Made by a program: the position numbers and the translations under genes. The notes under the pieces were generated by a model. That model did not search any database and was not told the origin of the DNA. It was given only the letters and a program-made list of their open reading frames with translations. Positions 1 to 41,971 of a stretch of DNA of 64,000 nt are shown in pieces (positions within the stretch are counted from its first letter, which is position 1; every line of letters begins with the position of its first letter). Source of the stretch: a virus; IMG/VR virus record IMGVR_UViG_3300046003_004989, positions 32,001 through 96,000 of that record, one strand, 5' to 3'.

Positions 1-1152
1 TTCGGTTGGTACTGGAACTTTGGAAGAAACGATGTAAATCTTGAATCTTTGTAGAATTGCATCGAATTTATCCTTGTGAATGAAATTCTTATCTGTAAAA
101 TGTTTCCAGATGTTTTCGAATGTCATTATATCTGACGGTTGTACATTAGGACCGAATGCAATTTCAGTAACCGCTTCTGGTGTATTCGTAACAAACTTAT
201 CTTGATCGTGTAGAAGTTTAGCTGTTTTAACTAGACCTTTTGCACCCATAAGAGTTTTTGTTACTTCGAAAATACCTTGACCTAAACGTATAACGAATTG
301 TTTGTATTCTTGAGTCTCACCTTTATCTGTAAGTTTCGTTGCTTCTTTTTTGCATTCAGAAACAACTGACATGAGAAGTACATTTCTGTACATCCCTTTA
401 TATTTTGATTCTGCTGCTCTAAAATCAGGTGAGTGATACATGAAAGTTGACCAATCTAGTGAAGATGTCATCATCAAATCAACTTGAGCAATTCCATTAG
501 ATGCTTTACCTGCAATTGGAACGCCAATAGAAACTTGATTAAATCCAACTGATTTTACTACAGTTATGCCGTTCTTCTTCATTGTTGCTTCAACAAAATC
601 AAGAACATCAGGGATAGAAATTGAATTTACTCCAGCAATACGATCCATTGAACAAGCAATATCCAAGTCACCTGAAAGCTGATCAGCTAGTTTTTTATTG
701 AATGAACCGATCGGTTTTGCAGAATCTTTATCTAAACCGATAAGTGGAAGAATCTTCTTTACTACATAATCGAATGTACCTACAGCTTCTTCTTGTGTCA
801 TAGGACGAGATTCAACTGCATTACCACCCTCATTAACAAATTCTACGGATTCTTCAACGAAATTCTCAACTCGTATAATTGATTTCGGATGATCTTTCAT
901 TGCATCGTGGTCATGAGGAACTAGGAATTCTTCACCGTCTTTCTTTCTAACATTATTCCAAACTCTTTTCAGGATGAATCCTTTCTTAGTATTGCTAATT
1001 ACACGAGAAACTTCTCCTACATTTGGTCCATCGGCAATATAATCACCTGGAGCAACGTCATCCCAATTAACATTTTGAGTTTTGTATTTGTTACTTGTTC
1101 TGTTGAACTTGTTTTCTAGAACAGTATCAACGAATTGTTTGAATTTTAACAT
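1..1152 (-). CDS. Pol-beta-superfamily nucleotidyltransferase with capsid-targeting-like leader (partial; runs off the window start; missing from the ORF track)
   Basis: Manual translation from ATG at 1152 (TAATG overlap): MLKFKQFVDTVLE...EFVNE/GGNAV...IGSFNKK...SGDLDIA...QVDLM, no stop seen before position 1; GS/DxD/D is the Pol-beta NTase signature. Confidence 0.75.
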   Translation of the reverse strand, partial: MLKFKQFVDTVLENKFNRTSNKYKTQNVNWDDVAPGDYIADGPNVGEVSRVISNTKKGFILKRVWNNVRKKDGEEFLVPHDHDAMKDHPKSIIRVENFVEESVEFVNEGGNAVESRPMTQEEAVGTFDYVVKKILPLIGLDKDSAKPIGSFNKKLADQLSGDLDIACSMDRIAGVNSISIPDVLDFVEATMKKNGITVVKSVGFNQVSIGVPIAGKASNGIAQVDLMMTSSLDWSTFMYHSPDFRAAESKYKGMYRNVLLMSVVSECKKEATKLTDKGETQEYKQFVIRLGQGIFEVTKTLMGAKGLVKTAKLLHDQDKFVTNTPEAVTEIAFGPNVQPSDIMTFENIWKHFTDKNFIHKDKFDAILQRFKIYIVSSKVPVPTE

Positions 1153-1769
1153 TATTTAATTTGGCTTATGTTAGTTACTTTTTTACCTTTTTTCTCTTCA
1201 TCATCAGCATCTGCAAAGAAAAGTAAACCTGCTTTAATTAATCTATTGTAGATTTCGTCTTTAACGATTCCAAAATCAATTGTGTCTGATGAATTTTCCC
1301 AAGTATCAGCAACGTATTCTGGATCGATCCAACCGTAACCTGATTTGATATTCTTAACCATGTCTGCAAAATCCATCTCAAATGCTTTTACTGCTCCTTC
1401 ATTCACAGACTCTTGAATATTCAACGGCTTCACTTTTGGATTTCTAGATCCTCTATAAACTGCGTTAAGCAATTTCTTATAGTCTTCAGGAGAATAGAAT
1501 TCTTCTTCCAATCCACAATAAACGAATTTAACATCCGAAGTGTTCATTGATTTTCCTGCATCTTTTCCGTGAGATATGAGGTTCGATGTTCTTTGTGTTA
1601 CAATTGCTGATCTTCCATCTTTCGTAAAGAAGATATCAATACCTTGACCTTCATATGCCTTAACAAAAGTTAAAGGTAAATCATGGTTCAGGTTATATGC
1701 AAGTTCTTCACCCCAAGTTATTCTTGCTTCATTGACAAAATCTTCGAAGCTTGGTATGTGTTTGTTCAT
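1152..1769 (-). CDS. Leader-bearing putative internal head protein, two segments
   Basis: MNKHIPSFEDFVNE leader; internal ESVNE. Confidence 0.7.
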   Translation of the reverse strand: MNKHIPSFEDFVNEARITWGEELAYNLNHDLPLTFVKAYEGQGIDIFFTKDGRSAIVTQRTSNLISHGKDAGKSMNTSDVKFVYCGLEEEFYSPEDYKKLLNAVYRGSRNPKVKPLNIQESVNEGAVKAFEMDFADMVKNIKSGYGWIDPEYVADTWENSSDTIDFGIVKDEIYNRLIKAGLLFFADADDEEKKGKKVTNISQIK

Positions 1770-1771
1770 TT

Positions 1772-2446
1772 TTATGATTGTTTGTTTAGTATTTCGAATG
1801 TTCTAGGTTGCTCGTCTAAGTATGCTTTAGTATCAACCCAAACTTGTCCTAAATGCTTCTCGTTTTCCTTATCAGTGATATCATATATCGTTAGTAAGGT
1901 TGTGTTAACTGATTGACCTTCCTTACCTTGCATTTTAAGTTGATAATCATTCAACCAATATTGAGAATTATGAATTCTGTATGTAGGTCTGTCTGGTCTA
2001 TTACCATGAGGCTTAACTATGAAATATTGAAAGTGTGCGAACATTGTTCCACCTTCAAAATCCCAGATTCTTTCCATTGCTTCATCCGTTGTTGCAGATG
2101 TTCTAGGCATAAGCTTCTTAAACAGCTTAGGATCGATAGAATTCTTTTTGTCCAAGACTACAGGTTTGAAATTATTAAATGTAGTTTCATTTAGAACTGA
2201 TTCATTTAGAATTTCTTGAACTCTAGAAATTATCTCGTCTTTCATTCCTTTCTTTGTAGCTTGGAATAAAGCTGGACTATATTTCTTAATTGCTTTTTCT
2301 ATTTGTTCATCAGTGAATTTTCCGTCTTCATCAGCACTAGTATGATTTGGCATAGAATAAGCTAGATCTTTTGCAGCTTTTTCTATTCCAGGATGAGATA
2401 TTTTAGCCTCATTAACGAATGATTCGAATGTAGGTATATTTTTCAT
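1772..2446 (-). CDS. Leader-bearing putative internal head protein, two segments
   Basis: MKNIPTFESFVNE leader; internal ILNESVLNE. Confidence 0.7.
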   Translation of the reverse strand: MKNIPTFESFVNEAKISHPGIEKAAKDLAYSMPNHTSADEDGKFTDEQIEKAIKKYSPALFQATKKGMKDEIISRVQEILNESVLNETTFNNFKPVVLDKKNSIDPKLFKKLMPRTSATTDEAMERIWDFEGGTMFAHFQYFIVKPHGNRPDRPTYRIHNSQYWLNDYQLKMQGKEGQSVNTTLLTIYDITDKENEKHLGQVWVDTKAYLDEQPRTFEILNKQS

Positions 2447-3252
2447 TATGATAGATTCTTTTTAAGTTCGTTATAGAATGGATGTACAGACTTAGGAGTC
2501 ATTTCGTCAAATGTTTTCTTATCATCTGCAAGGATTGCTTCACGTACTTTAGTACCTGAAGGACCTCCAGTTTGACGATCATCTACATTTTTTAGAATGA
2601 ATGGTTCAGATACAGGTACGTCCGATTTTTCAGAATTGATGTATTTAATTTGTGGTTCGTAAGCTTTCATACGATCAGAACCAGCACCCATTCCGATTGA
2701 TTCATATCCTTTTTCACGTAGGAATTTAACCATTTGTGGAATTACTGTCTTTCTATCGGATGGATATAAGAAGTAGTCTGCCATAAAGCTAAATTCTTTT
2801 GCAACTGCTTTACCAATCTTTTGAAGTAAAGCATCAGGAAAAGGAGACTTATCAGTTTTAGATAGGATTTGAAGTGGAATAACTTTCACACCGAATTGTT
2901 TTGAAGTTCTTTCTAGAGCTGCAATATGTCCGTTATGAAAAGGTTGGAAACGGCCAGGGAAGATACAAACTCTTTCACCGCTAGCAGCTTCAAACATAAA
3001 TAGACCTGCAGTTTCATTAATGGCACCTTTCTGAATAAACATATTCAAATTGATAGTCATTGTGCTACCACCTTTAATAGGTTTTACTGTAAGTATTGCA
3101 CCATTGTTTTTAACGACTTCGTATCTTGATCCTAGATAGAGGACGATTGAACCTACTTCGATAGCTTCAAATTCCTCGACACTCATCTTTTGACCATAAG
3201 CTTTCTTAAAGCCTTCATTAATAAATTGGTCGAATGCAGGTATGTTTTTCAT
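2446..3252 (-). CDS. HIGH-family cytidylyltransferase-like nucleotidyltransferase with leader and small N-terminal beta domain
   Basis: MKNIPAFDQFINE leader; FPGRFQPFHNGH (HxGH), GSDR, SGTKVRE motifs. Confidence 0.8.
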   Translation of the reverse strand: MKNIPAFDQFINEGFKKAYGQKMSVEEFEAIEVGSIVLYLGSRYEVVKNNGAILTVKPIKGGSTMTINLNMFIQKGAINETAGLFMFEAASGERVCIFPGRFQPFHNGHIAALERTSKQFGVKVIPLQILSKTDKSPFPDALLQKIGKAVAKEFSFMADYFLYPSDRKTVIPQMVKFLREKGYESIGMGAGSDRMKAYEPQIKYINSEKSDVPVSEPFILKNVDDRQTGGPSGTKVREAILADDKKTFDEMTPKSVHPFYNELKKNLS

Positions 3253-3268
3253 ATTACTTTTTATAAGA

Positions 3269-3305
3269 CAAATATAATCAATTTCTGCTTAACAGAAAAA
3301 CTTTT
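3269..3305 (-). promoter_or_regulatory. Bacteroidota-type -7 promoter (TTATATTTG) in a 37 bp element duplicated at 8865-8901
   Basis: caaatataatcaatttctgcttaacagaaaaactttt just upstream of the 3252 start; matches TAnnTTTG. Confidence 0.65.
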
Positions 3306-3323
3306 TGTCAATTATTTTTGATT

Positions 3324-3602
3324 TTATTTTACTTCTTCAGTTGAATCTTTGTCCCATTCACCCTTTTTAACAAATCCATGAACTGCAAAGTTAGCACGAG
3401 GTTCACCAGTAGTTTTCACCAATTTATCAATTGCCATATCTTCAGCTTTAGTGTTTTTAACACCTTTAATGTATCGAGCCTTGTATTGCTTTTTGGTTTT
3501 AAAATCTCCAAGAATAAATCCATCATAGAATTTAGTCATATCTCCTTCATTAATTATAGATTCATTAATGAAGTCTTCGAATGTTGGTATGTGTTTATTC
3601 AT
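3324..3602 (-). CDS. Leader-bearing putative internal head protein
   Basis: MNKHIPTFEDFINESIINE. Confidence 0.7.
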   Translation of the reverse strand: MNKHIPTFEDFINESIINEGDMTKFYDGFILGDFKTKKQYKARYIKGVKNTKAEDMAIDKLVKTTGEPRANFAVHGFVKKGEWDKDSTEEVK

Positions 3603-3603
3603 T

Positions 3604-4071
3604 TTAGTATACTCTTTTTAGGTTTATTGATTTTTTATGACGATGTCCCATCATTTCATTTGCTGCAAATGATTCAAATCCAAGTTCTTTAATTGCATCA
3701 AGGATTCCATTTTCTCTTGTTATCCACTCTTCTAATGCATTGAACATATCTTCCAATTCAGCTTTTGATGTTTCTTTTGTAATTCCTCTCATAGGCAAGT
3801 GTTTATCACAAACACCTTTCCATTGTTGAACTAGGCTATCGAAGTATTGTTGATGATATAGTGTATAAGCTGCTTGGAATTCTGGATTCAAAACAATAGA
3901 AACTTTATCTTCTTTGGTTTTAGCTTTTGTAGCAGGGAATCTCTTTCCTACCTCATAGCTTTTACTAACCAACCATTTATGTATGTCGGCTGCTTTAATT
4001 TTTGGATCGTCTAATGTTTTGTATTGAACTGATTCATTTACAAAATCTTCAAATGTTGGTATATTTTTCAT
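3604..4071 (-). CDS. Leader-bearing putative internal head protein
   Basis: MKNIPTFEDFVNE. Confidence 0.7.
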   Translation of the reverse strand: MKNIPTFEDFVNESVQYKTLDDPKIKAADIHKWLVSKSYEVGKRFPATKAKTKEDKVSIVLNPEFQAAYTLYHQQYFDSLVQQWKGVCDKHLPMRGITKETSKAELEDMFNALEEWITRENGILDAIKELGFESFAANEMMGHRHKKSINLKRVY

Positions 4072-4748
4072 TACTTTAATAATTTTCTAATGTTTTCGAT
4101 AACTATTGATCGATGATTGATAACTGCCTGAGCTTCTTTAGGATGTCTTTGCATAAGTTTCATCGTTTCTCTTGCCCAATTTTCTATTTCACGAGTTAGC
4201 TCAAGAGTTTTTGGCCAAGTAGAATCGTTAACGACATCAAAATCTTGATTACCTTCTAGAGATTCAATTCCAGTTTCTACGCTTTTATCGATGTTCGACC
4301 AATATCCACCTCCTTTAGAACTTATGATAGTTCCAACTGGTACTTTTACTTTTCTAGTTCCTCTGATATTTTTAACTTCGGTGTCTTTATTAGCAATATA
4401 AACATTCCAATATTCTCCACCAACTGATAAAAATCTAGATTCATTCATAGCCGATTCAGTAAGATTACCTCCACTGTCAATTCCAGCACTATGCCAATAA
4501 TCGCCTTTACCATTATAAGTTTTAGTAAATGCTACATATTCTTTTGTTTTAGGATTCCAAAAGTGACTTTCACCATTAGAGGCTGCCATCATTTTCAAAA
4601 TACCGCTTTTAGCATCTTTTATGAGTTTTAATTGAACTGCTCTAGTTAGAGGCTCTCTGACAGTTAATTTATCCGTAGATGCTGCAGAGAGAGCTTCATT
4701 GAGAACAGGCTCATTAACAAAGTCTTCAAATTGTGGTATATTTTTCAT
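4071..4748 (-). CDS. Leader-bearing putative internal head protein, two segments
   Basis: MKNIPQFEDFVNEPVLNE; internal LTESAMNE. Confidence 0.7.
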   Translation of the reverse strand: MKNIPQFEDFVNEPVLNEALSAASTDKLTVREPLTRAVQLKLIKDAKSGILKMMAASNGESHFWNPKTKEYVAFTKTYNGKGDYWHSAGIDSGGNLTESAMNESRFLSVGGEYWNVYIANKDTEVKNIRGTRKVKVPVGTIISSKGGGYWSNIDKSVETGIESLEGNQDFDVVNDSTWPKTLELTREIENWARETMKLMQRHPKEAQAVINHRSIVIENIRKLLK

Positions 4749-4754
4749 AATTGA

Positions 4755-5621
4755 TTAGTTGCTCCAACTAGCTGCTACGCTTAATCGAAGATTATATTTT
4801 TTTGCGAATTTTTCTAATTGGTCCATGATTCTTCCTTGGAAAGTTGAGAATTTGCTATACTCTTTAGAAGATGTAGTATTTCCTCCATATTCATTTTCAT
4901 GACGATACTCTCTAGGTTCATCAATTCTCATACGAACTTCTCGATTTTTCAAATCTAAATAAGGAGATCTTACTTCAATTCTTAATTTACTAGCATAAGT
5001 TCTCATTTCATTGTATAGAGGATCTATCTTAGCAGAAAGTTTTCTGAAGTCGTCTTCAATACGCTTTCTATCATTAGCGAGTTTTTGAGCTTGTCTAGGA
5101 TTGAAATATGCACCCATTTTCTTTTCATATTCATCGAAAATATGTACAATATCTTGTAAAACTCCAGTATGATTAGAGATTGATTTGTAACCTCCATAAA
5201 CTACATTTCCAGTTTTAAGAATATCACCATCTGTGTCTCTTATACCGTCGAAATAATGACCGAATGAATATTGAGGCTTACTCGTTGAATTACCTGAAGA
5301 GTATTGGAAAGGTCCGTCTGCATAAGTAGATCTACTCATACCTTTCACAGCAATAACTACTACGAGATTTCCACCATAATTCCATTCAGAACGATAAACA
5401 TATACGTCTAGTGGAACTTTGAGATTTTTGCTTAGATATTTAACAGCTTCAATTCCTTTACCGAAGTTAGTATTAGTTTCGTTACCTTCAGGAGTTCCTT
5501 TAATAGCTTTTAAGAAATTAGCTGGAGACATCGGCTCCATTGAATTGAAAAGAGGTTTTTTGTCTTTAGTATAGAGCATATCTTCATTAATAAAGTCCTC
5601 AAATATTGGAATGTTTATCAT
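4755..5621 (-). CDS. Leader-bearing putative internal head protein
   Basis: MINIPIFEDFINE. Confidence 0.7.
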   Translation of the reverse strand: MINIPIFEDFINEDMLYTKDKKPLFNSMEPMSPANFLKAIKGTPEGNETNTNFGKGIEAVKYLSKNLKVPLDVYVYRSEWNYGGNLVVVIAVKGMSRSTYADGPFQYSSGNSTSKPQYSFGHYFDGIRDTDGDILKTGNVVYGGYKSISNHTGVLQDIVHIFDEYEKKMGAYFNPRQAQKLANDRKRIEDDFRKLSAKIDPLYNEMRTYASKLRIEVRSPYLDLKNREVRMRIDEPREYRHENEYGGNTTSSKEYSKFSTFQGRIMDQLEKFAKKYNLRLSVAASWSN

Positions 5622-5658
5622 TATCTTCTTTTACTTTAGTTATTTATTCGAGATCAAA

Positions 5659-6417
5659 TTAGTCCCAAACTTCGGTGTATGTTCCACCAACAATCATAAC
5701 TCCTTGTTTCCAATCGAAATCAACTCTATCTTTTCTAAAGAAAAAATGATTTTTGATTATTTCTTCGGTTTGTTCTTCAGTCTTACCAAAAGCTACATTA
5801 AGATCTTTAATTACATAAGCTTTATCGTAAGATTTTGTGATATGAGTTGATGCTTGACTTCCATAACCCTGATCTCTTGTATTGATCGTTTTATAGTCGG
5901 CTTTTGATGATTTCCAGAATTGTATGATTCTATTAATCATATCATCATTAAGGGGTTGTTTCTGTGAGAATTTGATCCAATCTTTTACTTGCTTTGCGAT
6001 ATTAGCTTTCTTCGGATTTGATAGATCGAAAGCACGATAATTGTTAATGTAATCGTTTCCTGATACGCCAATTCCACCTCTAGGTTCTCTAGGCTGCTTA
6101 TCAGAAATTACTTCGGTGATCGTGATTGAAGCTTTTATCCACATATTACCAACATTACAGTTTTGTAAAATTTTTGCACGTTTAGCATCTATCCAAGACC
6201 AATCGTTAGTCTCATATTTATTAGATATGTGAATATGTCCGTTACCGTAGTCATAATACTTATCTTCTTTTCCACCTCTTTGATATGCTACATCTTTAAA
6301 GTTAGAAGTTAGTGCAGTTTGTAATTGTCTATCTAGAGCAGCATCTAGAGGATTGATTGTTCCTTCATTTAGAGTTGATTCATTAATGAAGTCTTCGAAT
6401 TGTGGGATATTTTTCAT
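5659..6417 (-). CDS. Leader-bearing putative internal head protein
   Basis: MKNIPQFEDFINESTLNE. Confidence 0.7.
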   Translation of the reverse strand: MKNIPQFEDFINESTLNEGTINPLDAALDRQLQTALTSNFKDVAYQRGGKEDKYYDYGNGHIHISNKYETNDWSWIDAKRAKILQNCNVGNMWIKASITITEVISDKQPREPRGGIGVSGNDYINNYRAFDLSNPKKANIAKQVKDWIKFSQKQPLNDDMINRIIQFWKSSKADYKTINTRDQGYGSQASTHITKSYDKAYVIKDLNVAFGKTEEQTEEIIKNHFFFRKDRVDFDWKQGVMIVGGTYTEVWD

Positions 6418-6818
6418 TATTTGTAATTTTTATTTAAGTACCAATCAATATCAGCCTTATCATAACCTAAAAGCTCACCGATTTTTTTGCTTTCCTGTTT
6501 AGTAGCCTCATATGATAGAAACCCACCATATTTATTAGCAATCTTTGCTAATTCTTTGGCTTTTTTCTCGGCACCTTTATTAAAATAAATATAAGCTTCG
6601 TATGGATTTTCAGGTAATTTGATTGTTCCTAAATTATTAGTCTTAATTAAATTCCAAAATTCATCTTTATTTATATCGACCGAAGTTTTGATAGTAATAA
6701 ATCCCACATCTCGCTTTCCGTCGATAACAGTTTGTATACCACTTTTATCTCGGTGAGCTTCTTCCGCTTTGATACTTTCAGATACGAATTCGTCGAATGT
6801 AGGAATGTGTATGTTCAT
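6417..6818 (-). CDS. Leader-bearing putative internal head protein
   Basis: MNIHIPTFDEFVSE. Confidence 0.7.
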   Translation of the reverse strand: MNIHIPTFDEFVSESIKAEEAHRDKSGIQTVIDGKRDVGFITIKTSVDINKDEFWNLIKTNNLGTIKLPENPYEAYIYFNKGAEKKAKELAKIANKYGGFLSYEATKQESKKIGELLGYDKADIDWYLNKNYK

Positions 6819-6827
6819 TTCACCTTT

Positions 6828-7517
6828 TTATATTTTTCCAGCTTTTACTCTATCTCTAGAAACACTGTTGATGTATTTTAGCTCATCTGCAGTCAATTTA
6901 GGAGAGATTAATTTTTTCCATTGTCCTTCTTGTTTAGCTTTAGGTAACTGCAAAAATTCAATAACGTCTTGATCGTTTTTTAGCTTATCAAGTATTGATT
7001 GAACTGCTTTATCTCTCTTATGTTCTCTCCACCAATCTTTTAAATCTTCAATTGGATGGAAGTCTACTCTATTTGCTAACATTGCAATTTGACCACCTAC
7101 TGCAGCTGCTTGTAGCATTAGTATCACTGTCATTGCGTCTTCATTAATAGGTTCAACTGATTCTCTAACGATATCGAAAAATTTCTTACGATCTGCAGGC
7201 CAAAATTGTTTTTGTCCTGGAATCTCGTCTAAGCATCTAAATGACATAGGCATAGAAGATCCTAAATCATTTTCATGTTCATCTTGATATGAAGTTACCC
7301 ATTTTCTAACTTTGTCATTTGCGTCTTTAACGACTACTCTAACAGCAAAACCTTTTGGGTGAGATTTTAACATTTGATAATCTATTGCATCAATTTTTAA
7401 TTCTCTTTCTAGGTCATCAATGAATTTAGCTGCAACTTTATTAGCTTTATCAGCAGCTGAGGCTTCGTTAAGAATAGATTCATTAACGAATTCTTCGAAT
7501 TGGGGAATATTTTTCAT
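6828..7517 (-). CDS. Leader-bearing putative internal head protein, two segments
   Basis: MKNIPQFEEFVNESILNE; internal VRESVEPINE followed by a hydrophobic helix. Confidence 0.7.
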   Translation of the reverse strand: MKNIPQFEEFVNESILNEASAADKANKVAAKFIDDLERELKIDAIDYQMLKSHPKGFAVRVVVKDANDKVRKWVTSYQDEHENDLGSSMPMSFRCLDEIPGQKQFWPADRKKFFDIVRESVEPINEDAMTVILMLQAAAVGGQIAMLANRVDFHPIEDLKDWWREHKRDKAVQSILDKLKNDQDVIEFLQLPKAKQEGQWKKLISPKLTADELKYINSVSRDRVKAGKI

Positions 7518-7777
7518 TTATGTTTAATGATTTTTATTTGTAAGTCTTTAGTCCCTTTGATTACTCGATGCATAGCACCTTTAGGGATGAATATCTCTTT
7601 ATTGAGCGATATAGGCAATTCATTATCGAATTGGAATTGCCAATCCGTTTTCTTAATTGCTTTTATCGTTCTGTCTTCTTCGTCCCAATGCCATTTTAAC
7701 TCCTCTTCTTCTGTTGATTGAAGGAAAGTTCGAATGTATGTGCATTCGTCTGATTGATATTCACAGTATGCTTTCAT
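7514..7777 (-). CDS. Small cupin-like protein without leader
   Basis: WHWDEEDR...WQFQFDNELP...IFIPKGAMHRVIKG cupin-like pattern. Confidence 0.55.
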   Translation of the reverse strand: MKAYCEYQSDECTYIRTFLQSTEEEELKWHWDEEDRTIKAIKKTDWQFQFDNELPISLNKEIFIPKGAMHRVIKGTKDLQIKIIKHK

Positions 7778-7778
7778 A

Positions 7779-8324
7779 TTACCAAGGTAGATCGGACTGA
7801 AGTCCTAATTGTTTATTGAAGAGTGAAGGTGCATAGCAAGACCAAAACTTTGCAGTTAGCGGATCTTGTGATTTTTTTAAGTCACATTGTTGTCTTGCCC
7901 AGTAAGAAGCTGCTGCTCCTGGATTGTCGTTTTTAATAACCATCTTAGGTTGACCCCAACCGATTTCAACGGCAATAATATTTCCGTCGTCGTCTTTCTT
8001 ACCACTATCATGATAGACTTTAAATTTTCTTTCTCCACCTCTAGTAGGTTCATCGAGTTTTACATCGATCCATTTACCATCAGCGGTTTCAAATTTCGCC
8101 TTTTCTCCGACTTTAAGATTCTTAGACATCCAAGCTTCTTTATCATTGAGAATAACGTTACCCTTATCCCACCATTCTTTAGTTTCTTCGAATAGTTTTT
8201 GATATGCTTCTGATCCAATACGGAATACAGATTCTGTAATGCCTAATCCACGATCTAAGTGATAAAGGAATGCTTCTGATGCATTCTCTCTCAAGTATTG
8301 ATCGAATTCTGGTATATTTTTCAT
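7779..8324 (-). CDS. Leader-bearing conserved phage protein (DUF6321-like C-terminus)
   Basis: MKNIPEFDQYLRE leader; KFKVY...WG.P.M.IK..NP...SYWAR..C...AKFWSC pattern recalled from large phages. Confidence 0.55.
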   Translation of the reverse strand: MKNIPEFDQYLRENASEAFLYHLDRGLGITESVFRIGSEAYQKLFEETKEWWDKGNVILNDKEAWMSKNLKVGEKAKFETADGKWIDVKLDEPTRGGERKFKVYHDSGKKDDDGNIIAVEIGWGQPKMVIKNDNPGAAASYWARQQCDLKKSQDPLTAKFWSCYAPSLFNKQLGLQSDLPW

Positions 8325-8325
8325 T

Positions 8326-8847
8326 TTACTTTTCTGATTTTTCTATATGTTGATCAGCTTTCTTTTTATCGCTTGCTGATAATTCATTGTAAAGTTTTTG
8401 TACAAATACATCATGATTTTTACCGCTATCGTAAGCTCTTGGATCGTCTGCATACATATAGTATTTATCAGACATCTCGTAATGACGTAACCATTTATCG
8501 AAAGGTTTGTACATTTTATCTTCTATTTGCTTACGGATTTGAGAATCTTGCATTTTCTTTTTATTCAAATACCATTCCCAAGAACCTCTAAACTGTCCTG
8601 TCTTAAAAGCGTGAATTATATCACCATCTTTTAATTTGATTTCGAATTTAATGCCTTTCGCATCATCACTAACGTCTTCGATAGATTTGATTTGCTTTTC
8701 AGCTTCTTCCCATTTAACAGGAATCAAATGCTTAACTGAAATAGTAACATCCATCTTAAGGTCTTCGGGAGTTCCCCAACCTTTTTTGAAGTCTGAGTAA
8801 GTTTGATACTCATTTACGAATGATTCGAATGTAGGTATATTTTTCAT
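8326..8847 (-). CDS. Leader-bearing putative internal head protein
   Basis: MKNIPTFESFVNE. Confidence 0.7.
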   Translation of the reverse strand: MKNIPTFESFVNEYQTYSDFKKGWGTPEDLKMDVTISVKHLIPVKWEEAEKQIKSIEDVSDDAKGIKFEIKLKDGDIIHAFKTGQFRGSWEWYLNKKKMQDSQIRKQIEDKMYKPFDKWLRHYEMSDKYYMYADDPRAYDSGKNHDVFVQKLYNELSASDKKKADQHIEKSEK

Positions 8848-8864
8848 ATTGTATGTTTATTTAG

Positions 8865-8901
8865 CAAATATAATCATTTTCTGATTAACAGAAAAACTTT
8901 T
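8865..8901 (-). promoter_or_regulatory. Bacteroidota-type -7 promoter, second copy of the 37 bp element
   Basis: caaatataatcattttctgattaacagaaaaactttt, 2 mismatches to 3269-3305. Confidence 0.65.
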
Positions 8902-9337
8902 AGCTACATGTTTTTCTAATAGTTTCAACTTGTGAACCACTAAAGCCCATTTCTCTTAGAGCTTTTTCGCATTCAAGACCAACGTTGATTCTATCTTTTT
9001 CAACTGGTAAACCTCTAGAATAACCAACTGATTCTGAATATCCGTAATTTGAGATGAAAGCTTTACATCTTCTGATCATTTTAATTGGATCTTTGATAGC
9101 TTTTAATTGTGCTCTTGTCTTACCTGCATAAGGAGCTCTATTACCATAGAAAGAACTACCCATCCATTGCAAATCTTCTGCACGGTCTAGGTCTTTTTTA
9201 TCTGGCATGATTTTTGATATCTCTTCATCTGTCATAGATGATGGAATGACTGCTGATTCGTTGATAGCGTCATCTTGGTCAATAGATTCATTGATAGCGC
9301 TTCTATTCAAGAATTCGTCAAATGTAGTTAATTTCAT
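8900..9337 (-). CDS. Leader-bearing (variant) putative internal head protein
   Basis: MKLTTFDEFLNRSAINESIDQDDAINE. Confidence 0.65.
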   Translation of the reverse strand: MKLTTFDEFLNRSAINESIDQDDAINESAVIPSSMTDEEISKIMPDKKDLDRAEDLQWMGSSFYGNRAPYAGKTRAQLKAIKDPIKMIRRCKAFISNYGYSESVGYSRGLPVEKDRINVGLECEKALREMGFSGSQVETIRKTCS

Positions 9338-9348
9338 TTCTTTATATT

Positions 9349-9645
9349 TTATTTTTCTATAACGTCTATTACGGAATCTTCAGATCCTTCGTAGTCTACA
9401 TCGAAACCTGATGAATCTGCTAGATCAATAAACTGATCAAACTCTCTCCTAGGAAGAGAGTAATATGAATCTCCTTTAATATCTTCAAAATCTAAATTAC
9501 GAGCAAACTTATCATTTAAGATTTGATCTAATTTATCATCATCTACACTAAATAAAACAACATCACTGTGTTTATATGTAGTTTTCATTCTCGCTTCATT
9601 AACAGATTCATTTACGAACTCATCAAAAGTTGGTATGTAATTCAT
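9349..9645 (-). CDS. Leader-bearing small acidic protein
   Basis: MNYIPTFDEFVNESVNE; mature part D/E-rich. Confidence 0.7.
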   Translation of the reverse strand: MNYIPTFDEFVNESVNEARMKTTYKHSDVVLFSVDDDKLDQILNDKFARNLDFEDIKGDSYYSLPRREFDQFIDLADSSGFDVDYEGSEDSVIDVIEK

Positions 9646-9659
9646 TTTTATGTTTGATT

Positions 9660-10109
9660 TTATTTTGCAGAATATGCTATATGTTTAAAGAATCTTTGTT
9701 GTACAAAACTTTGTATGCTAGATATTGCAAACATCGATGTAAAATTACCTTTAAATTTTTGTTTGTTTATATCCAATGAGCATGTAAGATAACCTTTAAC
9801 TACGTTACCTTCAGTTATCATTACCAGTGCCTGATCAGAAGATATCGATATTTGTCCGATATTCCACTTATTTTTATTGTCTTTGATTTTTTTCCAAAGT
9901 TCGTTCATTGGATTTTGGACTTGAACGTCAATTGAACCGGAAACAAAATTATAACTCATATTATTTGTTGCAGATTGAACCTCTTCAGCTGCATCTAAAA
10001 TAACTTCCCAAATCATTTGAGCAGTTTCTTCAGTTAATCTAACGTCTTTTATTGCTTCATTTATCGTAGATTCATTTATGAATTCTTCAAAACTCGGTAT
10101 GTAATTCAT
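9660..10109 (-). CDS. Leader-bearing putative internal head protein (start revised from 10193)
   Basis: Internal ATG gives MNYIPSFEEFINESTINE, matching the leader family. Confidence 0.7.
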   Translation of the reverse strand: MNYIPSFEEFINESTINEAIKDVRLTEETAQMIWEVILDAAEEVQSATNNMSYNFVSGSIDVQVQNPMNELWKKIKDNKNKWNIGQISISSDQALVMITEGNVVKGYLTCSLDINKQKFKGNFTSMFAISSIQSFVQQRFFKHIAYSAK

Positions 10110-10210
10110 TTCTTTCTTTTTATTTTTATATCCTCTAAAAGGATTGTGATTGCAAATATTGCCAATATAGTGAATAATACTATTGGTGGACAAGTTGGGT
10201 CCTGTGACAT
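10106..10210 (-). CDS. 34-aa single-helix membrane peptide (not in the ORF track)
   Basis: MSQDPTCPPIVLFTILAIFAITILLEDIKIKRKK*, fills the gap and overlaps the next start by ATGA. Confidence 0.5.
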   Translation of the reverse strand: MSQDPTCPPIVLFTILAIFAITILLEDIKIKRKK

Positions 10211-10222
10211 TTTTCTATCTAC

Positions 10223-11518
10223 TTATTTTTTATAAGCAAGGATAGATCGGATTTGATGCAATGGTGCAAAAATTCCAGTGTACTTGTAAAGTTTACCTTT
10301 GAATAAGAATGTAATACCTTCAGTCGGTACAATTGATTCTAATCCACCAGCAGCAGAAACACGAGTTAGCTCATGTTCCATCTTTTCTACATCAACTTCA
10401 TCTCCATTTGTACGGATCTTAGAAATTGTAGAATCGATTTCTTTACGCATATCTTCAGCGGCTTTAGTAGGATTTGCAGAAAGGAAAGATGAAATATTTT
10501 TCATCATTTCTGTTCCAATTTCGAGGAAGATAGATTCAAGTGGTGCATATACTGCACGTTTCCATTTCTTAGCCATTTTCTTTTCAAGATCAGTGAACCA
10601 AGTAGCATTATCACCTAAGTCTTTCTTAATCATAGGAACTGAGTAAGACTTATCGATATCTGCTATTCTTCTAGCAAGACCATCAAGAGATTGTTCAGGA
10701 AGTGTGATTTTTGCTGAAGCAGCTTCAGCTTTAATGATATTCTTACCCATACCTAGTGCATAATCACCTACAGTAGAATTCTGAGAACAACCACTTTCTT
10801 TCATGATTGATGCCAATTTAGATTTGTAGTATGATGCTCTAGCTTTTGTATTAGGGAGTGGTTTTGATGCGATGTCTTGAGGACCTCTAACAAAGAATGT
10901 TTCTTGTGCTGCTGCATTTGCATCTGCAACTATTTTACCGAGATCTCTACCAGCTTGTTTATCTTCATCAATTACTTTTCCTGCTTCGTCATATTCGAGT
11001 ACTCCATGGAATACTAACATATTAAGTCCGTAAGGAACAGTGTTTTGAGTTACAGGTGTAATGATTTCAATAGATGCGAATTTCTTACCTTCTGCGAAGT
11101 ATTTTTCTTTGTCTTTAGGTGAAAGTGCTCCGATTGAAGCAGTTAGATCTTTCATTGCTGCATTATAAACAATTTCTATATCACCTCTACCAGCGAAAAG
11201 ATCTGCAACACCTTGAATTGTCATTGCATTTTCACCAGCATTCTTTAAATGAGAACCGTTTCTAGCAGCTATTAAAGCACCATTTTTCCAAGAGATGGAA
11301 AGTTGTTGACCGTCAGTTTTTTCTTGTACGAAGTTTTCAGGACCGAAAGCTCCATTAACTGTAGTCATTAGCATTTCTTCCAAATCCAAAAAGGTCAACC
11401 CAATATCCTCGAAAGGATGTGTGAGATGACCGTAAGCACCACCTTCATTTAAAGGTTCTACTTTAATGGATTCATTAAGATATGCTACAAATTCTGTAAA
11501 TTTGAGTAATTTTCGCAT
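10223..11518 (-). CDS. RNA/DNA-ligase-like (KxDG) nucleotidyltransferase, DUF6267-like, with leader variant
   Basis: MRKLLKFTEFVAYLNE...PLNE/GGAYGHLTHPFED; QEKTDG (motif I), EG-hydrophobic and YKYTG (motif IV/V-like). Confidence 0.6.
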   Translation of the reverse strand: MRKLLKFTEFVAYLNESIKVEPLNEGGAYGHLTHPFEDIGLTFLDLEEMLMTTVNGAFGPENFVQEKTDGQQLSISWKNGALIAARNGSHLKNAGENAMTIQGVADLFAGRGDIEIVYNAAMKDLTASIGALSPKDKEKYFAEGKKFASIEIITPVTQNTVPYGLNMLVFHGVLEYDEAGKVIDEDKQAGRDLGKIVADANAAAQETFFVRGPQDIASKPLPNTKARASYYKSKLASIMKESGCSQNSTVGDYALGMGKNIIKAEAASAKITLPEQSLDGLARRIADIDKSYSVPMIKKDLGDNATWFTDLEKKMAKKWKRAVYAPLESIFLEIGTEMMKNISSFLSANPTKAAEDMRKEIDSTISKIRTNGDEVDVEKMEHELTRVSAAGGLESIVPTEGITFLFKGKLYKYTGIFAPLHQIRSILAYKK

Positions 11519-11543
11519 TGATTGTGAGTCTTTTATTTCATTT

Positions 11544-11551
11544 TATATATC
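11544..11551 (-). promoter_or_regulatory. Putative late promoter GATATATA
   Basis: Recurrent GATA[ATC]ATA motif upstream of virion genes; resembles T4 late TATAAATA. Confidence 0.5.
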
Positions 11552-11574
11552 TTCGAAGAAGACATAAGACTCAC

Positions 11575-11805
11575 CTAGTCCTTTTTAGCTTTCTTTGCAG
11601 CCTTTTCTTCGGCTTTCAAAGCAGCTTTTTCTTCAGCGATACGTTTAGCTTCTTCTTTACCGAAGTCTCTTACGTTAGTTTTCCATTCAGATTTCGGACA
11701 AAATGTCCAACCTTGGTAAGCAACAGCGTGATCTGCTACTTTATCTTCTGATCTACGGTATTCAACCTCATTAGTTTTCGGGTTGATTTTCTTTAATGTC
11801 TTCAT
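11575..11805 (-). CDS. Hypothetical basic protein
   Basis: ORF track; GWTFCPKSEWK core and K/A-rich tail. Confidence 0.55.
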   Translation of the reverse strand: MKTLKKINPKTNEVEYRRSEDKVADHAVAYQGWTFCPKSEWKTNVRDFGKEEAKRIAEEKAALKAEEKAAKKAKKD

Positions 11806-11992
11806 ATTTGATGTATTTTTTGATTTCTATTTTAACTTGATTGTTTGTTTTTCGATCAATCAGAACGAGTAGAATTACATCATCTTTGGAGTCATCATGA
11901 GAATAAACTTCCCACTCAGGGGAAGTTATCTCTTTATCATTGATCCAAGAAGCAACCGTAATGTCTTCTCTTCTATTCAATTTTAGTTGCAT
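11771..11992 (-). CDS. Hypothetical protein
   Basis: ORF coupled to neighbours. Confidence 0.5.
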   Translation of the reverse strand: MQLKLNRREDITVASWINDKEITSPEWEVYSHDDSKDDVILLVLIDRKTNNQVKIEIKKYIKYEDIKENQPEN

Positions 11993-13230
11993 TATTTAGC
12001 GAAAAATTTCTTATTGTTTGTTAATCTCTCGATTTCCCATTCAGGTACGATACCACCCTTTTCTACTAATTTCCAAAGCTTTTTGAAAGTTTCTTCAGAT
12101 TCTTGTCTACGACCTGACCACCAACAAGAAATTGAATGTAGATCGTATATTTTCCAAGCATAGATTGCTCCATCTATGAATAGTGCAGATGTTGGCATTG
12201 GATTCTTACCAGCGAATTTCATAGCATGTGAGCTATAGATATATGCAGTGTCGAACTCCTTAATTGAATGATAGTGTAGAATGATAGGAATTAAGTGTTC
12301 TGTTCTATGAACGTTAGCTTTACCACATTTACGATAATCTTCTAGGATTTCATTAACTGGATAATTAAGAGCACCTTTCAAAGAAGCAACCATTAACAAC
12401 GAATAATAAACTTCTTCCCAGAATCCATCATTAATCATATTAGATCTTTTCTCGTACCACTCTAATGCTTTTGCTTGATTTTCTGGGGTTCCTGCATCTC
12501 GATAAGATTGAGCTAAATAGAATACCCAACGTGGATCTTTCTTCGGATCATTTTCTACATAATCAAGTAGAATCTTAGCATGACCTTCGTATTTTTGTTG
12601 TTGAGTTTCAGAAGTCCAAGAGTTACCATCTGGAGTTACTAAAGTCGTTAGACCTTCGGCTTCACCTACATGAAAACCGTTTGGATCGTCATTTACAAGT
12701 ACTTCGTGTACTGGACCGTACCACCTCCAAGGTGATGTCGTGCTAAAGAATTGCATACGGAAGTAATTCTGACCTCCATAAGAAACTTTAATATTTGCCC
12801 CTGTAAATTGTGTAAGATTTGCTTTAAACATTTGAAGATTGAATCGAGGATCGATAATCAATTGCTCATCGGCATCAATCCAGAAACCGAAGTCTGCTTT
12901 ACCTTCAACAGCTTTTAAAGCTGTATTACGAGCATCTTCGAAGTTTTTCCAAGGATGATCGATTACTTCTCCTGGAATATTTTTCTCTTCAAAGAATTTT
13001 CTGATAATGTCTTGAGTTCCATCAGTAGATCCTGTATCGATAACTACATAATAATCGAGAATAGGATAAACAGAGTTTAACATACGCTCTATTACTTTTG
13101 CTTCGTTCTTAACGATAATGGAAAGTGATACAGTAGCTGGTTTGCCTGTTGGCATTTTTGCTACTTGAGGTCTTTGTACCTGAGGCCTTTGATTTTGCGA
13201 GGGCTTACGCTTTTTGTTATTCTTCGCCAT
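11992..13230 (-). CDS. GT2 glycosyltransferase with C-terminal TPR-like helices (SunS/SgtA-like)
   Basis: IVKNEA, DTGSTDGT, WIDADE, GPVHE, FYLAQSYRD motifs. Confidence 0.85.
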   Translation of the reverse strand: MAKNNKKRKPSQNQRPQVQRPQVAKMPTGKPATVSLSIIVKNEAKVIERMLNSVYPILDYYVVIDTGSTDGTQDIIRKFFEEKNIPGEVIDHPWKNFEDARNTALKAVEGKADFGFWIDADEQLIIDPRFNLQMFKANLTQFTGANIKVSYGGQNYFRMQFFSTTSPWRWYGPVHEVLVNDDPNGFHVGEAEGLTTLVTPDGNSWTSETQQQKYEGHAKILLDYVENDPKKDPRWVFYLAQSYRDAGTPENQAKALEWYEKRSNMINDGFWEEVYYSLLMVASLKGALNYPVNEILEDYRKCGKANVHRTEHLIPIILHYHSIKEFDTAYIYSSHAMKFAGKNPMPTSALFIDGAIYAWKIYDLHSISCWWSGRRQESEETFKKLWKLVEKGGIVPEWEIERLTNNKKFFAK

Positions 13231-13526: not shown

Positions 13527-14069
13527 TTATTTGATCCATCCATAATCGTCGATAGATCCATCATGCTTTAACTCTTGATATCTTGTGCCCTTATCGAAAA
13601 GAGTACCGAAATGTTTACCTTTATTAAAGAAGTAAATCTCTTCACCTCTACTAATATGTTCATAACGATCAAGCATATCTCGGAGTAAATTACTTTTCAA
13701 ACCTACTAGGATTTTAGTTTTACTTCCACTAAAATCTTTTACATCTTTCAATGTAACTGATTCATTTAGAAATTGTTCAAATGATTCAGTGAGTTTATTT
13801 AACTCAGCTTTATCATATGTACCGAAATCTTGATGAGGTAGAGTAGTTTTAGTTTGAACTTTTTTCACAGGATGTGTGAGTTCAACTCCTTCATAAGGAT
13901 CGGCTTTTACACCTCTCTTCTCCCAATAATCGAAGAAGTTCTTCCATGTTCCGTGATAATAGCGAATCTTTTCTAGATCGGAATCTTGTCCATGAGTCAT
14001 ATCAACTGTTTCTTGACCTGACCCCTTTGGGTTCTTTTCTGGTATTGGCATAATTTGAAATAACTTCAC
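13527..14069 (-). CDS. Hypothetical protein with an internal leader-like segment (start possibly 14051)
   Basis: Internal KLTESFEQFLNES. Confidence 0.55.
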   Translation of the reverse strand: MKLFQIMPIPEKNPKGSGQETVDMTHGQDSDLEKIRYYHGTWKNFFDYWEKRGVKADPYEGVELTHPVKKVQTKTTLPHQDFGTYDKAELNKLTESFEQFLNESVTLKDVKDFSGSKTKILVGLKSNLLRDMLDRYEHISRGEEIYFFNKGKHFGTLFDKGTRYQELKHDGSIDDYGWIK

Positions 14070-41958: not shown

Positions 41959-41971
41959 TATATATCTCAGA
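41959..41971 (-). promoter_or_regulatory. Putative late promoter GATATATA
   Basis: tatatatctcaga, identical 13-mer at 50461. Confidence 0.55.

Follow-up and report, generated by a model that had tools for sequence, protein, structure and literature searches.

In bacteriophage T4 the internal head proteins IPI, IPII, IPIII and Alt carry an N-terminal capsid targeting sequence (CTS), which is removed by the prohead protease gp21 (PMC9026906, PMC3012670, PMC5694885). The N-terminal residues of the CTS are responsible for targeting, and residues 8 and 10 control processing (PMC9026906). The cleavage sites of gp21 end in L/I-x-Glu; examples are LIE-9 in gp21 itself (PMC5694885, PMC9026906) and ITE-6 and LTE-619 in Alt, which is processed at both ends (PMC5694885). 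In the jumbo phages phiKZ and SPN3US the ejection and inner-body proteins are processed by gp175/gp245 (PMC5694885, PMC10052503). Here, a 64,000-nucleotide stretch of viral DNA (the window), comprising bases 32001-96000 of a 144,480-bp IMG/VR record with a CheckV completeness of 53%, was analyzed. It contains a tandem array of genes whose products start with a short CTS-like leader, and in six of them a motif resembling the end of the leader recurs between two unrelated modules.

The array occupies positions 1-11518 of the minus strand, which carries almost all genes of the genome and to which all array coordinates refer. It comprises 17 leader-bearing genes and one leaderless gene, and four gene pairs are joined by a TAATG overlap. 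The leader reads MKNIPxFE[DE]F[VI]NE, with near variants. All-against-all BLAST revealed that the array proteins are alike in their first ~13-20 residues only, and within the genome it detected no paralogous cargo modules in the array, so that the halves could not be matched inside their own genome. F[VIL]NE at residues 10-14 closes the leader and fits the hydrophobic-x-Glu class of gp21-type motifs; this end is frequently lengthened to a doubled motif, ...NES[VIT][LI]NE. The silent codon positions of the leaders vary and the peptide is kept, indicating selection on the peptide. With a looser pattern about 30 leader-type N-termini were found genome-wide, many of them within the head-gene block (64935-83412, genome-window; such coordinates continue the numbering of the window past its end and thus lie outside the 64,000 nucleotides). 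Among known systems the arrangement is most like that of the T4 internal proteins in that a short N-terminal leader ending in hydrophobic-x-Glu is attached to unrelated, fast-evolving proteins, the genes are clustered, and a protease of the gp21 family is present. In contrast to T4, which has a handful of leader genes, this phage has ~30, and its leader differs in sequence and is often doubled at its end.

The original prediction held that the end of the leader recurs at junctions between domains inside the array proteins. All seven peptides quoted for it were found on the minus strand in the respective open reading frames (ORFs). Six of the sites are boundaries between independently recurring modules, which is strongly supported and represents the strongest result of this analysis: at 6/6 internal sites at least one half recurs elsewhere, alone, with other partners or in multi-module proteins. 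The claim did not hold for ORF 8900-9337, in which two INE sites (9257-9265 and 9287-9295; residues 15-27) belong to an extended leader with a tripled end, FLNR-SAINE-SIDQDDAINE, and do not form a domain junction. The form [VIL]NE applied to the other sites listed, but in ORF 4071-4748 the site is MNE. Leader-bearing stand-alone homologues, a search for which had been suggested, exist for five of the C halves, but that of ORF 1152-1769 was seen just as a module inside longer proteins.

Related loci were retrieved by an IMG/VR scan with the 2446-3252 protein, which returned 80 loci, including the syntenic relatives L004-L025. All array proteins were compared with the syntenic relatives by local tblastn, and three large protein searches (P-numbered clusters) led to the same result on a much larger set of sequences. 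For five of the six proteins, the homology to metagenomic proteins or to loci of related phages begins or breaks off no more than a few residues from the motif. In the tblastn comparison the first matching residue is 106 in ORF 1-1152 and 122 in ORF 1152-1769, and the last is 106 in ORF 4071-4748 and 103 in ORF 13527-14069. Across 702 ORFs, 18 and 35 match boundaries were at most 3 residues away from [VILM]NE, compared with expected values of 5.3 and 8.3. This genome-wide homology-break statistic has a supporting role only, because it is noisy: conserved enzymes also yield fragmented matches.

ORF 1-1152 encodes 394 amino acids and its 3' end lies beyond the window. Its N module, together with the leader MLKFKQFVDTVLE (1114-1152) and the junction ENFVEESVEFVNE/GG (VNE at 829-837), occupies positions 829-1152; it recurs in cluster P0029, where the C module of ORF 6828-7517 follows it and the junction is kept as ESVETVNE/. 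The C module (1-828) contains GS..SGDLDI, which we take to be a nucleotidyltransferase motif of the Pol-beta type. It is encoded separately in at least 10 related loci, with the leader attached at the same point, e.g., MLKFNQFVNLVLNE/GGNAIE in L004 and MKYVKLYEQFINE/SGNS in L012. In ORF 1152-1769 the junction IQESVNE/GA (VNE at 1398-1406) separates residues 15-124 from residues 125-205. This C module of 81 amino acids is the last or an internal bead of multi-module frames of 336-574 amino acids in L004, L006, L010 and L005, and the joint in front of it always ends with Glu (LDE/G in L004 and L006, ESTLNE/A in L010, ESSVNE/A in L005). In L010 and L005 the preceding bead is the cargo of the stand-alone ORF 3324-3602 (92 amino acids).

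ORF 1772-2446 has a doubled junction, ILNESVLNE/TT (2186-2212), between an N module (residues 14-87) and a C module (residues 88-224). The C module is located directly behind the leader in about 90 of the clusters listed, and elsewhere it is preceded by at least eight different, unrelated N modules. In ORF 2446-3252 the junction GAINE/TAGLFMFE/AA (2989-3021, INE at 3013-3021) follows an N module of about 65 amino acids. Behind it lies an enzyme of the CTP_transf_like type with an NMNAT-type HxGH motif, the Pfam domain of which starts at residue 97, 17 residues past the site. The relic leader end LFMFE/AA is kept after AINE/TA. The same enzyme directly follows the leader in L010 (MKNIPTFEDFVFE/ATLNGKRVCIFPG), L014 (MKHVKLFEQFINE/AD..), L012 and others, and in L005 it is preceded by a different N module of 130 amino acids. 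CTP_transf_like was the sole named domain in a Pfam search of ten array proteins, and a PDB sequence search with the 1-1152 C module and the ligase-like protein of the array (see below) yielded no match.

In ORF 4071-4748 the junction LTESAMNE/SR (MNE at 4440-4448) separates residues 20-103 from residues 104-225. The C module alone was found behind the leader in at least seven clusters (P0156-P0162, 135 amino acids, MSKLPTYDEFLNE/STFL..), and the N module was found in proteins with two to five modules (P0163-P0172). In ORF 6828-7517 the junction ESVEPINE/DA (7140-7163) separates residues 20-126 from residues 127-229. Its C module stands alone behind the leader in P0013, P0018, P0021, P0027 and P0030; elsewhere it is located behind several other N modules or, in reversed order, comes first in the chain (P0020, P0033). 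Chains of three to five modules are represented by P0016, P0032, P0164, L005 and L010, and in P0169 the N modules of ORFs 1772-2446 and 4071-4748 are linked to a third one, which P0020 also contains. Complete leaders in internal positions occur in P0017, L015 and L019. The fused forms are present in many independent assemblies and are thus not assembly artefacts. As a separate observation, the C module of ORF 6828-7517 (6828-7139) has a conserved hydrophobic helix (DAMTVILMLQAAAVGGQIAMLA) at its very start, immediately behind the predicted cut, and it may be a membrane-active cargo that is exposed only once processed.

The motif frequency was compared with that in non-virion proteins, and enrichment was found in accordance with the original prediction. 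In the proteome of 222 ORFs the bare [VIL]NE occurs 114 times, versus 34-48 times for permuted tripeptides, and much of the excess is N-terminal: the first 32 residues contain 42 copies, versus 2-8 for permuted tripeptides. Beyond the N-terminal region the density per 1000 amino acids is 2.45 in leader-bearing proteins, 6.22 in head-morphogenesis proteins (an enrichment of 2-fold and 5-fold, respectively) and 1.24 in others, with a composition expectation of 0.95; the rate ratio of leader-bearing to other proteins is 2.0 (Poisson p = 0.007). The extended motif ES..[VILM]NE is far more specific. It was found 9 times in 6,947 amino acids of leader proteins, 6 times in 2,412 amino acids of head proteins, and once in the remaining 29,942 amino acids. 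This amounts to 1.3, 2.49 and 0.03 copies per 1000 amino acids, and thus to a density ~40-80-fold higher than in other proteins.

The record represents a T4-related myovirus of the jumbo-phage type, which encodes a Peptidase_S77 protease and a Gp23-type major capsid protein. A vertex paralogue of the latter is present, as are genes for the large terminase, the tail sheath and topoisomerase II. The nearest database phages of the terminase are uncultured huge phages, Sphingomonas phage PAU and Tenacibaculum/Flavobacterium jumbo phages (30-43% identity). Close metagenomic relatives reach 294 kb and 91% completeness, with a capsid-protein identity of 81%. The gp21-type protease was identified by Pfam model PF03420 with E = 6.8e-14, above the curated cut-off (genome-window 71909-73813; L001:10-1914:-). 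Its sequences GELDHP and ISSRAAG are conserved in relatives and resemble the catalytic His and Ser motifs. Of the 634 amino acids of the protein, the S77 domain takes up residues ~1-164 and a fused scaffold-like part with coiled-coil-like repeats (YTKVVAEKADQGIE) takes up ~470; this fusion is conserved in four relatives. Immediately past the protease domain lies VNE164, which is invariant in five relatives and parallels the C-terminal self-cleavage of related proteases (PMC5694885). The scaffold part contains 10 [VIL]NE sites. Those at 374, 420, 557 and 606 are conserved in 4/5 relatives, and the fifth keeps the Glu-ending sequences LAE, INE, LSE and KKE.

In T4 the scaffold and core proteins gp22, gp67 and gp68 are fragmented by gp21, and the many [VIL]NE sites in the scaffold part of this phage, several of them conserved, are similar. 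The difference is that protease and scaffold form one polypeptide here, and that the cargo chains consist of folded modules and not of a coiled-coil scaffold that is destroyed. The propeptide of the major capsid protein aligns with that of T4 gp23, which is cut after Glu65. It contains the sites LINE, IVE and LYE, and LYE43 lies just upstream of the segment aligned to the start of mature gp23. Because an S77 protease is encoded, published gp21 sites end in L/I-x-Glu and the motif punctuates the scaffold, it is well motivated to regard [VIL]NE as the putative site of the head protease, at which the junctions would be cut. Part of the capsid protein recurs in a 140-amino-acid ORF (genome-window 99777-100199, also present in relatives G001 and G003). 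Directly behind a VNE site of this ORF, 47 residues are a copy of capsid-protein residues 40-86 with 47% identity; in the capsid protein this stretch surrounds the predicted mature N-terminus.

The following mechanism is proposed, to which we assign a probability of roughly 0.62. The leader would address the array proteins to the prohead in a T4 CTS-like manner; its first part, MKNIPxFEDF, would bind the scaffold core, and the gp21-type protease, which cuts after Glu, would act at its end ([VIL]NE, in many cases in the doubled form NES.[LI]NE). Six genes have a second, unrelated module behind a linker of the type ES..[VILM]NE plus a small or acidic residue, and this linker keeps only the cleavage part of the leader and has lost the targeting part (compare FFDIVRESVEPINE with FEDFVNESVEPINE). 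The whole chain would be loaded on a single leader, and the activated protease would remove the leader and cut the linkers. The separate folded modules of ~8-32 kDa should be too large for leaving the shell, and they would remain with the DNA and enter the host by ejection. One leader thus probably delivers two cargos in these six proteins, and the mature products would outnumber the genes. The linkers may have originated from fusion or recombination of neighbouring leader genes at leader or linker sequences, because the linkers keep the cleavage part, TAATG overlaps are present and complete internal leaders exist; this would also allow related phages to reshuffle modules.

The T4 CTS/gp21 system is known, and what appears to be new is its extension to chains of modules. 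A second, distal cut is possible in T4 as well, as exemplified by LTE-619 of Alt, but chains of two to five unrelated modules with cleavage-type linkers, which are shuffled among relatives, are not described for T4. In the literature searched, multi-cargo polyproteins that are shuffled and processed by a prohead protease were not found. A purely functional analogy are the polyproteins of RNA viruses, in which a viral protease likewise divides one product into several functional proteins by cutting at a short motif that is repeated. They are evolutionarily unrelated, and in the phage the processing would occur within the capsid during assembly, with cargo loading as its purpose.

Two proteins were analyzed with structure models, and in both the sites lie between folded domains and not inside them, as had been predicted. 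The AlphaFold model of the 1772-2446 protein had a mean predicted local distance difference test score (pLDDT) of 87.5 and a predicted template modelling score of 0.64. It comprises a helical N module (19-86) and an alpha/beta C module (87-223) with the motif at the seam, where the pLDDT drops to 71 (residues 81-90), versus 86 and 94 in the adjoining blocks. A Foldseek search of this model against PDB gave no match at E <= 0.001. In the model of the 6828-7517 protein the N module (21-100) is confident, a coil of low confidence runs through the site, and helices form the C module, which begins at residue 127. The N modules had pLDDT values of 80-93 (6828-7517) and 81-93 (1772-2446).

These models bear on a different interpretation, namely that the N modules are long disposable propeptides, which serve targeting, scaffolding or enzyme inhibition and are then degraded or expelled, leaving one mature product per gene. 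A precedent exists in SPN3US, where the propeptides of head proteins have 79-127 residues with several cleavage motifs, and where all identified cuts, bar the self-cleavage of the protease, yield N-terminal propeptides (PMC5694885, PMC10052503). Moreover, the N modules are small (65-110 amino acids), and the named enzymes (CTP_transf_like, nucleotidyltransferase-like) are always the C module. Nevertheless, this interpretation is unlikely. The N modules are mutually unrelated, fold as domains in the models and are devoid of further internal cleavage motifs at which they could be fragmented into small peptides. In addition, the roles swap: in L005 and L010 the stand-alone 92-amino-acid cargo of ORF 3324-3602 sits in the interior of a chain, and the "C" module of ORF 6828-7517 comes first in the two reversed clusters. 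The phage is like phiKZ and SPN3US in being a jumbo phage with many putative head-internal proteins and several motifs per protein, and in those phages a distant gp21 relative cuts after Glu at a three-residue motif. However, their additional cuts lie in long N-terminal propeptides that are later cleared, their sites (ARE-12, ALE-111 and AQE-203 in SPN3US, SLE-13 in phiKZ) differ from the [VIL]NE of this phage, their protease belongs to family S80 and not to S77, and there are no reports of independent modules being shuffled at these sites.

Conservation of the junctions bears on a further possibility, according to which the linkers are scars of fusions that remain uncleaved, the old leader end is a neutral relic or a flexible linker, and the two-module proteins are packaged, and act, without being divided. 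The junctions indeed look like decayed leaders (FFDIVRESVEPINE versus FEDFVNESVEPINE, ENFVEESVEFVNE versus EDFVNES), the four overlapping gene pairs imply that a small indel is enough for fusion, and internal leaders are complete in P0017, L015 and L019. On the other hand, only the cleavage part is kept and the targeting part (MKNIPxF) decays, and Asn-Glu is invariant across many independent contexts with 45-95% sequence divergence. Glu87 is invariant in an alignment of 58 relatives of the 1772-2446 protein, and in 21 relatives of the 6828-7517 protein Asn125 and Glu126 are invariant and Asp127 is nearly so, regardless of the upstream part. The NLMES.LNE end of the 4071-4748 N module is kept in front of five different downstream modules, and the motif is also found where the protease domain ends and at conserved sites of the scaffold. 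Uncleaved scars are therefore regarded as an improbable explanation.

The candidate expression signals of the array are in part of a late type. A candidate late-type promoter, GATATATAA (11543-11551, minus strand), is located 33 nucleotides upstream of the first gene of the array. The same motif, [GA]ATATATA[AC], also precedes structural genes, among them those of the sheath, the portal and the protease-scaffold protein, at a distance of 24-42 nucleotides; it lies at 41966, 50468 and 62654 in the window and at 70061, 73840, 75510, 83436, 84406 and 105100 (genome-window). Candidate host-type promoters with the Bacteroidota -7 pattern TAnnTTTG (TATATTTG) were found at 3269-3276, 8865-8872, 33580, 34614, 44046, 46373 and 61803, many with a TTGTTAATAAC box upstream and a hairpin, which suggests a Bacteroidota host. 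It is very improbable that the leader acts as a different kind of sorting signal, or as a conserved 5' element of the mRNA or of translation, and that the internal motifs are unrelated to head maturation: the link between leader and capsid was drawn from the sequence only, host-type promoters lie inside the array and the Pfam and PDB sequence searches gave most cargo modules no function, but leader codons vary silently around a constant peptide, the internal copies lack a start codon, leader genes are also found within the head-gene block, the leader end fits the specificity of the encoded protease, and a late-type promoter motif heads the array.

Several points weigh against the proposed cleavage of leader-loaded chains. 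The bare tripeptide is just twofold enriched inside leader proteins, which is modest. Many junctions are inherited leader ends, so that their conservation may partly reflect history and not selection. In the model of the 1772-2446 protein the site caps the end of a helix and is not a free loop, and the model of the 6828-7517 protein has a low overall confidence (pLDDT 64.6). The two host-type promoters within the array (3269-3276 and 8865-8872) suggest that some of its genes are also made early. The identified protease cuts in SPN3US, apart from self-cleavage, free broken-up N-terminal propeptides and not second cargos (PMC10052503). No cultured phage with the modules was found: a megablast of window positions 1-12000 and a tblastn with the 1772-2446 protein yielded no match among phages. 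Unlike the T4 internal proteins, the system is known from gene sequences, in an uncultured phage and its relatives.

Further features of the genome are related to the array. An additional internal leader-like junction, ESFEQFLNE/SV (13761-13787, minus strand), which was outside the range of the original prediction, was found in ORF 13527-14069; in L004 and L006 its N half (residues 27-103) is encoded on its own by a short ORF, which stops just past the motif. A leader protein of 397 amino acids (genome-window 101191-102384) contains three doubled motifs (ESVEEEVNE/R, INESNINE/G and INESVDESIDE/S) and is a candidate for a four-module polyprotein in the same genome. The sole array member without a leader is an 87-amino-acid gene (7514-7777, minus strand), which is 54-60% identical in six related loci. 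A leader-bearing ligase-like protein with the motif EKTDGQQ (10223-11518, minus strand) is 65-78% identical in the closer relatives listed, and a leader-bearing ATP-grasp-like protein has 497 amino acids (genome-window 65441-66934). The ligase-like, nucleotidyltransferase-like and ATP-grasp-like leader proteins suggest that nucleotide- or RNA-modifying enzymes travel with the DNA.

Gene fusions were also observed in jumbo-phage contigs of 250-480 kb (L027, L030, L036 and L043). They encode proteins of 650-680 amino acids with a ligase-like N-terminal domain (VNEKMDGSAF) and an NMNAT-like domain, between which an internal leader-like ESE[IM]PSFLDF is located; in the genome under study the two enzymes are separate leader genes. 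Short ORFs in L014 (15284-15652) and L018 (5233-5592) end in a full leader-like peptide with a stop a few codons later (..KKKRKMKHVKTFESFLADSK*), and in L015 and L019 the same frame continues into a cargo module. The short ORFs may be frameshifted, or they may be newly split or fused genes. A recombination joint at the DNA level, with linker DNA fixed at silent sites, was also considered and is unsupported here, as leader and linker codons vary silently.

A generalization to a large clade of uncultured T4-related jumbo phages is tentative, and its chance is put slightly below even. It would comprise a two-part code of capsid address and protease joint with plug-and-play properties: modules flanked by joints would be chained, loaded with one address, released within the capsid and injected, and the DNA of the joint would also be the recombination point for the exchange of single modules, resulting in a combinatorial and rapidly evolving arsenal of injected enzymes. 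Here this arsenal would include the NMNAT-like, nucleotidyltransferase-like, ligase-like and ATP-grasp-like enzymes. The T4 CTS has already been used for the packaging of foreign proteins. If the linkers are cut, an address of 13 residues and a linker of ~8 residues would constitute a natural system for multiplexed protein delivery that is comparable to the T4 CTS but richer, and the number of injected proteins would exceed what gene counts say. The diversification of the arsenal would be explained by module exchange at the joint, and dozens of unannotated modules would become candidates for factors of host takeover in the first minutes or of anti-defence.

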